In this document: positions 11,540 through 18,011 of the stretch, piece after piece
Layout of the letters: each line of letters starts with the position of its first letter
Position numbering within the stretch: position 1 is the first letter of the stretch
Assembly (NCBI GenBank): GCA_030668825.1
Contig: DAOVET010000035.1
Coordinates: forward strand, 1-25,166
Direction of reading: 5' to 3'
Length of the DNA stretch: 25,166 bases
Source: Candidatus Heimdallarchaeota archaeon
GTDB taxonomy: Archaea; Asgardarchaeota; Heimdallarchaeia; Heimdallarchaeales; Heimdallarchaeaceae
Program-made: the position numbers and the translations under genes
The notes under the pieces: model-generated
Databases searched by the model: none
The model's input: only the letters and a program-made list of their open reading frames with translations
Told to the model about the DNA's origin: nothing

Positions 11540-13426
11540 TTACTTTCGATTTGTTTTATTCTTTTTGTTAATCGCGTAACCTGTTACTAGGAGAGAAAAT
11601 AGAATTGATAAAGTTGCATAAGGAGATGTTGATGTTGGTGTCTCAACTTCAAGCACGACGTTAAATAGTATGGTTGAATTAAACTGATTTCCAGCTTTAT
11701 CTTCCACCATCATAATTACAGTATAATTTCCATCTTCTACATAATTGTGGAACGCAAAATGATCATCAGTAACATTCTGAACTACACCATCGTCCCAAAA
11801 AATCCAGACTCTTTCTATTCCTGCATACGTATCAGAATAGTCAAAATAAACTTCAACATAACCATCAGTTATTGCTGTATCATTTGAAGTATGACTAGTG
11901 ATTTCCAATGTAGGATTTTCGAAGTCAAGATAGATAATTGTAGAAACTGTGGCATTTACTAATACAGGAGCATCATTAACTCTTGTAATGTTAATTGTAA
12001 CATATAATGTCGCGTTATATTCTCCTGTAACTTGGGGATAATAATGAACACTTGTATTTGTTTCAACATCCATAATATCAGTGATTGGTGTTCCATCATC
12101 AAAATCCATTTCAACACTATAAAGCGACCCTCGAGAAGTATCAATTTCGTAGTAAAAAGTCACATTATAGTCGTTTGTGTAGGTGTTATTCACAGGATAT
12201 AAACTAATCTCTGGAACTGAATCGTAGATGTACAACAATTTCATTGTTCCGCCTGTTTCATTGTAAAACGCACCATAATAGAGATTGTACGCTTCATAAT
12301 GCAAAATATTCCCTTTGGAGAATGAACCAATAGAAACAAAGTATTCTCTTATTGTATCAGTGTGCCCATCTTCGTTTTCTACTGTATAATTTCGATTAAG
12401 TGTTGCTTCGACTTCAGTAAACGGAATTATTTCTGTATCATTATCTAGACCTTGTGTTACAAAATATCTGATTCCATATTTTTCTACATCTGTTGAATTG
12501 TGAGTAGTAATATTAAACTCTAAGTCATCTAAATCGGTTATTTTTCCTTCTTGTAATGGATTTGATTCAAAGTAAAATCCATTGTAAATCATATACACAT
12601 TTAGCTGAGTTCTGACTTCATTTATACCGCCCCAAGTATCCCAACCATATGAATTGTTCGCGCTGAAGAAAATCGTTCTATCCGTAAATTCTAACGTTGT
12701 GTTGAAAATAACAGAAGTTGTAGTTATATTTCCTTCTTGCCAATCCATTTCAATAAATGATACATCACCATTAAATGTGCCTAAAGCGACATCAGTAATC
12801 GGATCTCTGTACTTCGACAATGCTAAAGTCACTGTATCATTTTCTGTTCCACCATAGATTTCGTAGCGGATCGCTATTGTATTATTTGTTTGATTAGAAG
12901 GAGTATAGTAGATGAAATTGTTTTGTGTCACAGTTGCATTATCAATACTATGAAAAGCAGGAGGTGTCCCTTCTTCTGTAACATAGAGATAGTGCCATGG
13001 TCCTAAATGATTAAAATTTTCTAATACTTCATAGGTTCCATTAGTGATATCACCAATCCAAGCATAACCCTTGAATGAGGTTAAACCAGTTAAACTGAAA
13101 TTTCCGTTATAATATGAACGGTCAACTAGAGAGTAGGAGAAATTTAATGCTAAGCTGGTTTCGGGGGTTAGACTCAGGTTTGAACCAGAACCTACTATTA
13201 ATATTCCACTGATACCTACGAAACGGTCTACGGAATACTCAACTGTTATAAAAGTGAGATTTGGGAAATTGATTCCTTGAAAATCTTCGAGCCCTTCAGC
13301 TACTAGGCTTTCTAAAATCGGTTCTGTAGGACTAGCAGCATGCATTTTCGGATCGAATGATCCAAGTCCCAATGAAAGTGTTATCAGTATTATAACTACA
13401 AAGGTATATGTCTTTTTAATGTTCAT
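11540..13426 (-). CDS. Secreted/cell-surface glycoprotein with PKD/Ig-like domains and C-terminal membrane anchor
   Basis: Signal peptide MNIKKTYTFVVIILITL and many N-x-S/T sequons. PKD-like segments DFDDGT..HYY..GEYNATL and WDDG..HNYVEDGNYTV..VEDKAGN. Ends with a Thr/Ser/Pro linker, TM helix and basic tail. Confidence 0.8.
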   Translation of the reverse strand: MNIKKTYTFVVIILITLSLGLGSFDPKMHAASPTEPILESLVAEGLEDFQGINFPNLTFITVEYSVDRFVGISGILIVGSGSNLSLTPETSLALNFSYSLVDRSYYNGNFSLTGLTSFKGYAWIGDITNGTYEVLENFNHLGPWHYLYVTEEGTPPAFHSIDNATVTQNNFIYYTPSNQTNNTIAIRYEIYGGTENDTVTLALSKYRDPITDVALGTFNGDVSFIEMDWQEGNITTTSVIFNTTLEFTDRTIFFSANNSYGWDTWGGINEVRTQLNVYMIYNGFYFESNPLQEGKITDLDDLEFNITTHNSTDVEKYGIRYFVTQGLDNDTEIIPFTEVEATLNRNYTVENEDGHTDTIREYFVSIGSFSKGNILHYEAYNLYYGAFYNETGGTMKLLYIYDSVPEISLYPVNNTYTNDYNVTFYYEIDTSRGSLYSVEMDFDDGTPITDIMDVETNTSVHYYPQVTGEYNATLYVTINITRVNDAPVLVNATVSTIIYLDFENPTLEITSHTSNDTAITDGYVEVYFDYSDTYAGIERVWIFWDDGVVQNVTDDHFAFHNYVEDGNYTVIMMVEDKAGNQFNSTILFNVVLEVETPTSTSPYATLSILFSLLVTGYAINKKNKTNRK

Positions 13427-15513: not shown

Positions 15514-15620
15514 CTAAATGAGCTGTTCTTTATCCTATCTGCCAAATTGTTGTTTTTAATAAGGTAACTTTAATAAGTCATGTAATGCTAAATAGAAGTA
15601 ATTGGCCGGGGTAGATTCAA

Positions 15621-17687
15621 CTGAGTTATGAACGTGAAGATATTGTCGAATTAGACTTCCAAGAATTGGATCTTCCTGAAGTAACTCTATCAAAAACAAG
15701 AAAATCACAAATAATTTCACAACTCTATCTATATAGAGAAATTAACTTAAAATCGTTTTCTGAGCAGACTGGCGTTCCCATCGTAGCAATAAAAGACTAT
15801 ATACAGTTACTCATTCAAGCTCTTATTCTGAGGGGGTACTACAGAAAAAACAGATTTGTTCTAGTATCTGCATACAGATATCCAAGGGTGAATCCAGGAA
15901 AATTAAGCAATCTTAGAAGAAATTTGTTAGGAGTACTAGTAAGCAATCAAAAAATCGATATCCATTTTCTCCGCAAAATTTTGAACATTTCTTCTGATGA
16001 ACTAATATCACATCTTCTATTCCTCACTGTCAGAGGGTTATTCATTGGAAGTCTGAGAAATCAAGAGATATTAGTTCAAAAAACATGGATGCCTTTCGAG
16101 AAAGTAAAAATCAGTTCTGATGATACATTTATCATAGGAACATGTATGCTTTTGCGAGATGCAGATTTAAGCAAAGTAGCAAAACTAACAGGTTTCACTA
16201 GAGATGGAGTATTTAACACAATTGCTAAGCTTATGTTGTATAACAAATTGGAAGCTTCATTTGAAGTTTCTGGAGGAATTGTTGGTTCTAGTAAAATTTC
16301 CGTAAACGTTAAAAAGTACCTGATTGCTCCGCGCACTTTACCCATGGAAGCTCTTCAAGGTGATGAAAGATCTGTAGTTGGGTATACTATATTGAAGAAA
16401 GAAGTAGATATAGAGGAATTAGCAAAATACCTTGATAAAAAAGAAAAAGAAGTAGTCAAAATTATTGCCTTCTTAACTGCAAGGGGTACTTTTCAATTTA
16501 TATTTAATGAGAAAAACAAGATAGTACCAGTTATCATTCCTGATACACAACCAAATCAAACAATAGAAGAAATGGCTACTTTATCATTTTTCAATTACGA
16601 AGCGTTGTTTGGTTTATTATCAACTCAAGAGCGAATTCCTCTCAGGAAACTTGCTACTTTGATGAATAGAGAAGTTGACGAAGTCTTAGAAGGTGTAATG
16701 AATCTATACCTAGAGGGATTTGTTACTTGTACATTAAAGGGTGCCACAATTCATGTAGATAGCCTCAAAAGGTATAGCAGAACTCAAGAAGGAACACTTG
16801 AAAGATGGGAAAAAATTGTACTGGGCATGATAATTGCAAAAACATCTATCACTACTAAAGACATCGAAGACGCATTAGGAATTGACAAAAATCATGCTAA
16901 AGAAAGAATGTATGGATTTTATGGAAAGGGTTTAATCAAAGGCAATATCACGGGAAATAAACTTGAACCTGAAGAAATTCCTATATTTCCTCCTTTGGTT
17001 CAACTAGATGATCTTCCAATTCATTATCAGGAAATTTTTGGTTACATTATTTCAAACTCTAGAGTTTCATTTAAGAATATAATGAAATTCTGGGAAAAAA
17101 CACTTGTTGCATCAAAGAACATTGTTTACGAATTAACAGGTTCTGGTCTGATGAATATATCTTCACGTGGAAGTACTGTAACATTAGTTTCAAGCCAAAA
17201 ATTCCTACCAAATAAACAGTTGAACGAACTAGGTGAAATTTACACAAGAGTTGTAAATGAGATTGAAAAATCAAGAAGAAAAAGGATTAAGTTAACAACA
17301 ATTGCAAATTCTGTTAGAATGGAATCTTTAGATTTGTTCAAGATGTTATGCCAGCTACTCTCCCATGGGTATTATAAAGGAGTATTAACTTCAGCTTATT
17401 TTGAAAGAGTTGGCAAAATATTATTACCAGTGGGCAAAAATTATTGCCTTAATTGTGGGCATGTAATAAAATCTTCTACTGAACCATGCAGTAATTGTAT
17501 GCTGTTGCATCAAAAATGTATGGTTTGTCAAGGATTAATTAAGAAGGGTGATAAAGTGAAGGAATGCCCAACTTGTAACAATGTTGCTCATGATGATCAT
17601 TTGGAACAATGGATGAAGATAAAGCAAGAATGTCCGATATGTAAAACTAGAATTTCGAAAAGAAATCTAAAAAAATATTCAGTATAA
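15621..17687 (+). CDS. Protein with about 8 tandem winged-helix (PCI-like) repeats + Zn ribbon + RING-variant finger; start uncertain (CTG 15621 or TTG 15666)
   Basis: A unit of about 75 aa (h-G-hh...I.h..LA..h......h...h..L...G.h.G.h) repeats 8 times. C-terminus CLNC..CSNC, then CMVC..CPTC..HDDH..W..CPIC. Confidence 0.75.
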   Translation: MSYEREDIVELDFQELDLPEVTLSKTRKSQIISQLYLYREINLKSFSEQTGVPIVAIKDYIQLLIQALILRGYYRKNRFVLVSAYRYPRVNPGKLSNLRRNLLGVLVSNQKIDIHFLRKILNISSDELISHLLFLTVRGLFIGSLRNQEILVQKTWMPFEKVKISSDDTFIIGTCMLLRDADLSKVAKLTGFTRDGVFNTIAKLMLYNKLEASFEVSGGIVGSSKISVNVKKYLIAPRTLPMEALQGDERSVVGYTILKKEVDIEELAKYLDKKEKEVVKIIAFLTARGTFQFIFNEKNKIVPVIIPDTQPNQTIEEMATLSFFNYEALFGLLSTQERIPLRKLATLMNREVDEVLEGVMNLYLEGFVTCTLKGATIHVDSLKRYSRTQEGTLERWEKIVLGMIIAKTSITTKDIEDALGIDKNHAKERMYGFYGKGLIKGNITGNKLEPEEIPIFPPLVQLDDLPIHYQEIFGYIISNSRVSFKNIMKFWEKTLVASKNIVYELTGSGLMNISSRGSTVTLVSSQKFLPNKQLNELGEIYTRVVNEIEKSRRKRIKLTTIANSVRMESLDLFKMLCQLLSHGYYKGVLTSAYFERVGKILLPVGKNYCLNCGHVIKSSTEPCSNCMLLHQKCMVCQGLIKKGDKVKECPTCNNVAHDDHLEQWMKIKQECPICKTRISKRNLKKYSV

Positions 17688-17699
17688 TGGTAGATTTTG

Positions 17700-18011
17700 A
17701 TGGAACTTCATAAAATACAAGACGAAGTGTATAATTTTCTAAAGGAAAGAGATTGGTTTAAATATTCTCCAAATGATGTTCTTATTCATCTGTACGAGGA
17801 ATTAAGTGAAATCGGAAAACACCTGCTGTTCAAATCAAAGTATAAAGAAGAAAGTGGTCATTCAAAGCCAGATGAAGAAGAATTACCAAGGGAATTTGCT
17901 CAAGCATTTTCGTTGTTCTTACAACTCTGTATTCTGCTAGATGTTGATTTAGAACAAGCTTGGAAAAATGAGATAAAAATAATGAGAGAAAGATTTCCAA
18001 TAGATAAATAA
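17700..18011 (+). CDS. MazG-like all-alpha NTP pyrophosphohydrolase
   Basis: F.KERDW, LYEELSE, EFAQ, LDVDLEQA and ERFP resemble the dCTPase/MazG-like family. Confidence 0.75.
   Translation: MELHKIQDEVYNFLKERDWFKYSPNDVLIHLYEELSEIGKHLLFKSKYKEESGHSKPDEEELPREFAQAFSLFLQLCILLDVDLEQAWKNEIKIMRERFPIDK

Follow-up and report, generated by a model that had tools for sequence, protein, structure and literature searches.

A gene of Heimdallarchaeaceae encoding eight tandem PCI-like winged helices, a zinc ribbon and a variant RING in one chain, a candidate E3 ubiquitin ligase

We analyzed a stretch of 25,166 nucleotides of DNA, here called the window, from a Candidatus Heimdallarchaeota archaeon of the family Heimdallarchaeaceae (GenBank assembly GCA_030668825.1, contig DAOVET010000035.1, positions 1 to 25,166 of the forward strand), with a focus on one gene at 15621..17687 of the plus strand (stop included). 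The gene was delimited using the list of open reading frames (ORFs), the translation and 44 homologues, and encodes about 688 aa when read from a CTG codon at 15621. An initial annotation of this DNA had proposed that the product joins eight tandem winged-helix (WH) repeats to a zinc ribbon and a variant RING, and that it is a candidate scaffold-type ubiquitin ligase (E3). The domain architecture was found to be as proposed, and we consider the ligase assignment reasonably probable. All residue numbers given below count position 15615 as the start of residue 1.

An AlphaFold2 model of the whole protein, built from a 45-sequence alignment, reached a mean predicted local distance difference test (pLDDT) value of 88.1 and a predicted TM-score (pTM) of 0.70, and displayed eight helix-(strand)-helix-helix-strand-strand units, followed by a CxxC-x10-CxxC element and then a RING. 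Everything ahead of the zinc module in this model consisted of the eight WH units, joined by short linkers and lacking any helical-repeat part. The first unit, WH1, as defined by the modelled secondary structure and by profile alignment using hhalign (probability 80.8% against WH2), covers residues 27–86 (15693..15872), and is followed by the PCI-like winged helix WH2 at residues 99–157 (15909..16085), by WH3 with a long beta-hairpin wing at residues 168–235 (16116..16319) and by WH4 at residues 249–305 (16359..16529). The fifth unit, again taken from the model, spans residues 317–384 (16563..16766); the linker TIEEMATLSFFNYEAL ahead of it was strongly conserved (conservation 0.80), with alignment columns 313–337 around the start of the unit being invariant. 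The most conserved unit is WH6 at residues 397–452 (16803..16970). It precedes WH7 at residues 469–527 (17019..17195), supported by model, alignment and hhalign (94.0% against WH5) and led by a conserved linker at residues 454–468, EIPIFPPLxQLDDLP, and finally WH8 at residues 536–599 (17220..17411), with all units on the plus strand. Two repeat peptides that the initial annotation had quoted were found in the translation, within WH2 (residues 103–144) and WH5 (331–372). When sub-alignments of the eight units were compared profile to profile, 12 of the 28 pairs scored at a probability of at least 80%, all in register, with the WH2 profile matching all seven other units (80.8–96.5%), whereas no pair of the 28 reached that level with column-reversed targets, which argues from sequence that the units are true repeats, beyond what chance would give. 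The protein is basic overall, with 98 Lys and Arg against 75 Asp and Glu (+23), a charge that is unevenly spread over the units (WH1 +8, WH2 +5 and WH8 +5, with the most conserved WH5 and WH6 near neutral). No paralogue of the WH array was found in the genome by hmmsearch at an E-value of 0.01.

The C-terminal part agreed with the Cys/His pattern that had been described from 17445 onwards. It begins with the zinc ribbon (C611, C614, C625 and C628; 17445..17498, plus strand), invariant in 22/22 and 44/45 sequences, and continues with a RING-H2 variant running from C635 to K677 (17517..17645, plus strand), identified by Pfam, sequence matches in the PDB, fold matches, conservation and the predicted interface with a ubiquitin-conjugating enzyme (E2). 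Its pattern is C635-x2-C638-x12-C651-x2-C654-x4-H659-x2-H662-x3-W666-x6-C673-P674-x-C676, giving C635, C638, C651, C654, H659, H662, C673 and C676 as ligands. Of the 45 family members, 44 carry the zinc ligands together with V/I637, N656, W666, P674 and K677, the remaining one being truncated. The pattern residues of ribbon and RING were also found in 21/21 relatives from other genomes, save for one having Tyr in place of the Trp, and 14 Cys/His/Pro positions were invariant in all 22 sequences that cover the order and one distant lineage. Several of the conserved residues stand at what we take to be the E2-contact positions of a RING, i.e. V/I two residues after the first ligand (637), Trp666, the Pro after ligand 7 (674) and a basic residue after ligand 8 (K677), among them the Trp and the Cys-Pro that the initial annotation had singled out as E2-binding hallmarks.

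Pfam assigned the RING to zf-RING_2 at 27.6 bits (cut-off 27.3), or at 33.9 bits in the six-frame search of the genome, with 44/45 members matching at E ≤0.1. Searching PDB sequences with a profile of the C-terminal part gave ARK2C, RNF165 and Arkadia at E-values of 3e-8 to 9e-8 over 52 residues, and furthermore RNF24, RNF126, EL5, listerin and synoviolin. Structure comparison also gave RING/U-box folds as matches, suggesting that the ligands would be paired in a cross-brace. A hidden Markov model of the zinc ribbon and RING together detected 12 further ORFs in the genome, with the unit at the C-terminus of every one, including a RING protein of a ubiquitin operon (E 1.4e-7), a protein of 907 aa, a fusion to an SF1 helicase and three paralogues in tandem; the unit is a mobile C-terminal module. 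These further ORFs are on contigs C4, C18, C21, C42, C62, C74, C96, C102 and C135. The helicase fusion is a 715-aa protein (G000:C21:74-2218) with an SF1 (Upf1-like AAA_11/AAA_12) helicase and the RING at its C-terminus, and elsewhere the zinc ribbon and RING sit on large proteins containing Ig, beta-helix and propeller domains.

With regards to the type of winged helix, the Pfam PCI model matched the window protein at 31.6 bits (cut-off 22), a score summed over the repeats, with every single stretch staying below the cut-off. The same model matched 31/45 close members and 29/35 distant relatives, and the matches spanned profile positions of about 15–82, i.e. the WH part; the units can thereby be classified as PCI-type. 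The sole other PCI match in the genome was found at C116:18716-18895 (33.5 bits), inside an open frame of 878 aa. We also searched PDB sequences using a wider-family profile of the 35 distant relatives, one of which (P0078) aligned to the close family at a probability of 99.9%. The WH region then matched CSN2 of the COP9 signalosome (CSN) at E 1.6e-5 and DDRGK1 at E 3.2e-5 to 8.4e-5, whereas generic DNA-binding winged helix-turn-helix (wHTH) proteins reached only E 0.003–0.03. The WH units are consequently PCI-like both by sequence and by fold, as the PCI analogy drawn earlier had implied. Among the distant relatives six matched DDRGK and two E3_UFM1_ligase, as summed repeat scores; the window protein itself had no match to E3_UFM1_ligase (PF09743) at E ≤1, matched DDRGK only at E 0.23 and gave no NCBIfam match below E 0.05. 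A 255-aa protein on C100 (16792-17220; L015 1399-2166, minus strand) matches E3_UFM1_ligase at 24.2 bits (cut-off 23.2); when tried as a possible relative it proved unrelated (hhalign probability 3.8%).

At the level of the whole model, the top match in Foldseek was a chimera of UFL1 and DDRGK1, the ligase for UFM1, at E 7.9e-7, an analogue that the initial annotation had not considered. It was followed by TFIIIC tauB (E 1.2e-5), 60S-bound UFL1, SelB with its four WH domains (1.3e-4) and RPC82/RPC62. The analogies that had been drawn instead, to Nse1 and ESCRT-II, turned out to be weak, with Nse1-MAGE at rank 30 (5hvq_C, E 0.024) and ESCRT-II at ranks 35–45, all at E-values of 0.02–0.04. TM-scores were low throughout (0.06–0.26; 0.09–0.22 to UFL1, at a root-mean-square deviation of 14–15 Å), so that the likeness lies in the series of WH units and not in their packing. 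VIA-align placed WH4 on WH domains of the Csa3/MarR/ArsR/BirA type and WH3 on TFE-alpha. Among 48,161 representative solved chains there were single-domain matches only, apart from a loose alignment of 121 residues with the UFL1-DDRGK1 chimera (14 Å), and the overall arrangement thus had no solved counterpart among these chains. Searching the ESM Atlas with the WH array returned generic wHTH clusters only (scores ≤0.83) and was uninformative.

The genome assembly (2.76 Mb in 138 contigs, 90.6% complete) encodes a ubiquitin system. It had four matches to UQ_con, two to ubiquitin and 12 to zf-RING_2, and the set comprised two ThiF-type E1-like genes, two E2s, two proteins of the ubiquitin E2 variant (UEV) type, ubiquitin and a JAB protease. 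An operon on contig C96 (L038 3018-8564) holds an E1 (ThiF, 416 aa), a ubiquitin-like gene, a 367-aa RING protein, the JAB protease and a 176-aa E2, while contig C133 carries a stand-alone E2 of 155 aa (P0194), both E2s having an HxN motif and a Cys at the catalytic position. A further set on contig C2 (L039 1602-5646), beside ESCRT genes, contains ubiquitin (78 aa), an E1-like gene (334 aa), a UEV-Vps23-Vps28 fusion and an EAP30 protein; the ubiquitin loci of the genome are thus two separate ones, ESCRT-adjacent on C2 and a classic operon on C96. Cascades of E1, E2 and RING proteins from Asgard archaea and Caldiarchaeum have been reconstituted in vitro according to passages in two reports (bioRxiv 10.1101/2023.07.25.550441; PMC5654768). 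Searches for Ufm1 and UFC1 gave no match in the genome at its 90.6% completeness, a blank that is weak for UFC1 because the same search found none in its 14 control genomes either (0/14).

The zinc ribbon and RING (22-row alignment) were co-folded with the C133 E2 (15 rows), one of the two E2s, which gave an ipSAE of 0.64, to be compared with 0.00 for the best of three controls. The ipSAE mark used is reached by 116/157 solved complexes and by 2/215 mismatched pairs, counts that are rough as custom alignments were used here. The runs shared at least 95% of their contacts, with a partner pLDDT of at least 92. The predicted interface comprised residues 636–640, 662, 665–666, 669–670, 672, 674–675 and 677 of the RING, and helix 1 (residues 1–13), P61-F62 and T93-P94-A95/N97 of the E2, which together form what we take to be the textbook RING-E2 contact surface. 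Binding of the E2 by the canonical surface of the RING is thus predicted by the model.

We next evaluated how widely the protein is distributed. A word-indexed search of 5.8 billion proteins gave the 44 homologues (537–691 aa, 43–94% identity), seven of which carry organism names (Heimdallarchaeaceae, Heimdallarchaeota or 'Asgard group') and two of which are labelled 'RING finger domain-containing protein' or 'E3 ubiquitin protein ligase'. When 400 genomes of the phylum were scanned in six frames, 54 had matches at E ≤1e-20. The gene was full-length and mostly single-copy in 44 of the 46 other genomes of the order, with full-length matches across its four families (30/30, 1/1, 3/3 and 10/12 genomes) and in none of the 22 genomes of a sister family. 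Beyond the order only the C-terminal module was found, except in two genomes of one distant family having frames of about 700 aa that matched from about position 420 on. Scanning 1.84 billion representatives using HMMER yielded 43 proteins at E ≤1e-30; among the matches listed were full-length relatives at 250–420 bits and variants of 796–942 aa, with the named distant relatives belonging to Kariarchaeaceae and Hodarchaeales/Hodarchaeota. One of the variants, P0074 (942 aa, Hodarchaeales), has WH2–WH8 (profile positions 89–595) fused to an Mrr-type nuclease that replaces both RING and zinc ribbon; it is named a restriction endonuclease by a source. A reading of the window gene as part of a defence system, prompted by this protein, was rejected, as the gene is single-copy, near-universal in the order and placed among housekeeping genes. 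In a sister family, the match of frames of 1004–1022 aa (P0109, P0114 and G082–G090) is confined to profile positions 559–678, starting halfway through WH8 and including the zinc ribbon and RING, and these proteins of about 1000 aa had no Pfam match in their first 900 or so residues.

The start of the gene required separate analysis. The first canonical start codon in the ORF list is a TTG at 15666, giving a 673-aa ORF that ends at 17687 of the plus strand, while the translation shows the frame to be free of stop codons from 15615 onward. A comparison of start codons at 15 loci revealed a TAG (15612..15614, plus strand) where relatives have their start codon, with GTG in four relatives, ATG in two and TAG in six genomes, i.e. 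the source genome and five others of the genus, the TAG having arisen by a one-base insertion. The 17 codons after the TAG are nevertheless kept at the protein level (six synonymous and two conservative changes compared with L023). Two of the six TAG-bearing genomes have CTG or CTT instead of the TTG at 15666, whereas the CTG at 15621 is common to all six. The ancestral start codon is lost in the source genome, and since the codons downstream are kept and the CTG is present in all six genomes, CTG 15621 is probably the true, non-canonical start. The segment thereby added at the N-terminus (residues 3–23, 15621..15683, plus strand), upstream of the canonical start and kept in the alignment of relatives, is acidic with a net charge of -7, and was modelled with a strand at residues 6–8 and a helix at residues 15–18 (pLDDT 67–83). 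Two sequencing runs labelled 'METAGENOMIC RNA-Seq', which are probably DNA, gave five contigs of 88–192 bases within the gene and are evidence neither for nor against its expression.

Within the family the gene order is glutamine synthetase, the WH-array RING gene, a 104-aa gene and an ABC ATPase, and in a sister family of the order a PKD protein comes directly after the gene, ahead of a subtilase of about 1200 aa, with PdxS/PdxT upstream of the gene. The 104-aa gene of the window (17697..18011, plus strand) lies nine bases downstream of the RING gene and had no Pfam match at E 0.01. At L029 and L030, in two other genera of the family, its homologues share an overlap with the end of the RING gene at the stop codon, and at L028 they are displaced; the 104-aa gene is likely an operon partner of the RING gene within Heimdallarchaeaceae. 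A PKD-domain protein, in the window one of 628 aa (11540-13426, minus strand), stays close to the RING gene in two families of the order. It bears a signal or anchor at the N-terminus, a further anchor at the C-terminus and numerous N-x-S/T sites. We read it as a surface protein, and its linkage to the RING gene as inherited synteny. The neighbourhoods, studied in the window and at the loci of 10 relatives, held housekeeping or surface proteins and no functional partner.

The analysis establishes how the domains of the protein are laid out, that this layout is conserved and that the genome has a ubiquitin system, while ligase activity, a scaffold function and a target are inferred. We favour, with some confidence, the explanation that the gene encodes a RING E3 ubiquitin ligase having the PCI-like WH array as its docking body. 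The protein would be a cytosolic ligase in which the single-chain array of eight WH units docks a substrate or partner, while the RING at its C-terminus brings in an E2 charged with ubiquitin and activates it. The likeliest such E2 would be the stand-alone 155-aa enzyme on C133, with the 176-aa E2 of the C96 operon as the alternative, and contact would be made through the canonical surface using V637, W666, P674/I675 and Lys677 as the 'linchpin'. The WH array, possibly rigid and with WH5–WH6 as its conserved core, would hold a protein or complex within reach, and the zinc ribbon may serve as a spacer or stabilizer between array and RING. The scaffold-ligase proposal of the initial annotation is hence upheld with regards to what the sequence and genome contain, as the repeats are modelled as winged helices, the C-terminus matches RING folds and an E1, E2s and ubiquitin are encoded, and it stays conditional with regards to what the protein would do.

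A number of observations weigh against this explanation. The zf-RING_2 score only barely exceeded its cut-off. When the ligands were read from an alignment with Arkadia/RNF165 and with canonical paralogues in the source genome, the His expected as ligand 4 was an invariant Asn (N656), with a Cys (C651) upstream taking its place as a ligand and a His as ligand 6. The unit of zinc ribbon and RING, taken as a whole, aligned with WDR19/IFT144 at E 6.4e-8 (profile positions 6–86), with a chain of the Tetrahymena intraflagellar transport complex A (IFT-A) at 3.2e-6 and with the GATOR2 components WDR59 (7.3e-5), MIOS (1e-4; 3.2e-7 against the wider profile) and WDR24 (1.3e-4). No ubiquitin-system gene was adjacent in the window or at the 10 relatives' loci. 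Co-occurrence with an E2 is non-discriminating because 83/83 genomes of the class had UQ_con and 46/47 of the order, including the source genome, had an E2 of the C133 type. The Mrr nuclease in the place of the RING in P0074 implies that the WH array is not tied to ubiquitylation. Finally, the result of the co-fold may reflect the memory that the model has of many solved RING-E2 complexes, in which case it shows likeness rather than binding by this copy.

The main rival explanation, which we regard as unlikely yet as deserving serious consideration, is that of a non-catalytic assembly scaffold, where the zinc module would act as glue and the PCI-like WH units would build a complex, with no transfer of ubiquitin. 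The zinc and RING domains of IFT144 and GATOR2 mainly glue complexes together, and it is with WDR19/IFT144, IFT-A, WDR59, MIOS and WDR24 that the entire 80-residue zinc unit of the window protein aligns. PCI-type WH units are those of the proteasome lid, CSN and eIF3, and PCI-type domains drive oligomerization according to a passage in one paper (PMC10936438). The lack of a ubiquitin gene nearby also suits a scaffold. However, matches of the RING alone to active ligases were at least as good (E 3e-8), the residues at E2-contact positions, including the linchpin Lys, are kept in 44/45 members, and the predicted E2 complex passed its controls. The 12 further ORFs carrying the module on varied N-termini, one of them in a ubiquitin operon, moreover form the pattern of a ligase repertoire.

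Less probable still, and in our judgement rather doubtful, is a nucleic-acid-binding factor whose WH array reads DNA or RNA in the manner of SelB, TFIIIC tau138 or RPC82/62, with the RING being accessory or ubiquitylating proteins bound to chromatin, transcription complexes or ribosomes. Such a function would agree with the Foldseek matches to TFIIIC tauB, SelB and RPC82/RPC62, with the placement of WH3 on TFE-alpha and of WH4 on WH domains of the MarR/ArsR/BirA type, with the basic charge of the protein and of WH1, WH2 and WH8, with the fusion of the array to an Mrr nuclease in the Hodarchaeales relative, and with the name 'TFIIE alpha' given to homologues by one source. On the other hand, CSN2 and DDRGK1, being protein-binding PCI types, matched with E-values 100- to 1000-fold better than the DNA-binding wHTH proteins, and WH5 and WH6, where conservation is highest, have a net charge close to zero. 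The third ('recognition') helix furthermore starts with acidic residues in WH2, WH4, WH5 and WH8 (SSDELIS, KEKEVVK, EVDEVLE and ESLDLFK), which we judge to be unfavourable for contact with DNA. The least likely rival, a UFL1-like scaffold ligase for a modifier other than ubiquitin in which the WH array and not the RING activates the E2, shares with UFL1 the serial order of WH units only (TM-scores 0.09–0.22, 14–15 Å) and is very improbable, considering that Ufm1 and UFC1 gave no match in the genome (a weak blank for UFC1), that PF09743 gave none in the window protein at E ≤1 and that the RING is invariant, which argues for the RING as the E2-binding part.

Taking the RING ligase as the preferred explanation, a bolder extension can be formulated, to which we would assign a rather low probability. 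The family may be an archaeal survivor of the ancestral scaffold of the eukaryotic UFM1 ligase, a single-chain array of PCI/DDRGK1-type winged helices that has kept its RING. UFL1 and DDRGK1 could then descend from a WH-array RING ligase of the Heimdall type, through loss of the RING, splitting into two chains and re-use for UFM1, and the zinc ribbon and RING could be the archaeal source of the zinc modules in IFT-A and GATOR2. The Heimdallarchaeial, Kariarchaeaceae and Hodarchaeales lineages are generally placed near the archaeal ancestor from which eukaryotes arose. 'Asgard homologues of UFL1 and DDRGK1' are reported in a passage of one paper (PMC10183829), and these could be members of the family described here; the supplementary spreadsheet of that paper lacks the terms Heimdall, Asgard, archaeon and Lokiarch.

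RING ligases and winged helices are each ordinary, but a full-text literature search found no description of an architecture with eight WH units, zinc ribbon and RING, nor of a ligase body made of eight PCI-like WH units in one chain, and the initial annotation had likewise not recognized the architecture as a characterized one. The protein offers a tractable single-polypeptide model for the positioning of an E2 by WH arrays, a question that also concerns UFL1, and is a concrete candidate for the function that Asgard UFL1/DDRGK1-like proteins had before UFM1. It also connects, at the level of sequence, the RING modules of archaea with the zinc modules found in IFT-A and GATOR2, and if inactive as a ligase it would still be an archaeal PCI-like scaffold of a new kind.

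Among known systems the UFM1 ligase comes closest. UFL1 and UFBP1 are described in part of one paper (PMC9627666) as a scaffold-type E3 built from PCI-like WH repeats, and UFL1/DDRGK1 and the window protein have a tandem array of PCI-like WH units in common. However, UFL1 has no RING, requires a second chain for completion of a composite WH and acts together with UFM1 and UFC1, whereas the window protein has eight complete WH units in one chain together with a zinc ribbon and a RING, and the two cannot be superposed as rigid bodies (14 Å). The PCI subunits of the COP9 signalosome, the lid and eIF3 each have one WH after helical repeats and form a horseshoe of separate chains, in contrast to the eight units in one chain, with no helical-repeat parts, found here. 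IFT144/WDR19, IFT122 and the GATOR2 proteins MIOS, WDR24 and WDR59 have a similar C-terminal module of zinc finger and RING, but on N-termini of beta-propellers and alpha-solenoids with no WH array. Nse1 of SMC5/6 likewise has WH units ahead of a variant RING, with a C4HC3-like ligand spacing that is presumably similar, but only two such units; its family was not among the Pfam matches listed, and the window gene has no MAGE or kleisin context.

The RING itself has its hydrophobic, Trp, CPxC and basic linchpin positions in common with the RING-H2 ligases Arkadia/RNF111, ARK2C/RNF165, RNF38 and RNF24, although its ligands follow C-x2-C-x12-C-x2-C-x4-H-x2-H-x10-C-x2-C instead of the C-x2-C-xn-C-x-H-x2-H-x2-C-xn-C-x2-C of RING-H2. 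The RING E3s encoded in archaeal operons of Caldiarchaeum and Helarchaeia have short or other N-termini and lie inside the operon, whereas the window gene is far from the operon and adds an array of eight WH units. The operon RING of the source genome itself, on contig C96, is nonetheless a relative of the window RING, having the same CPxC-x4-H variant (E 1.4e-7).

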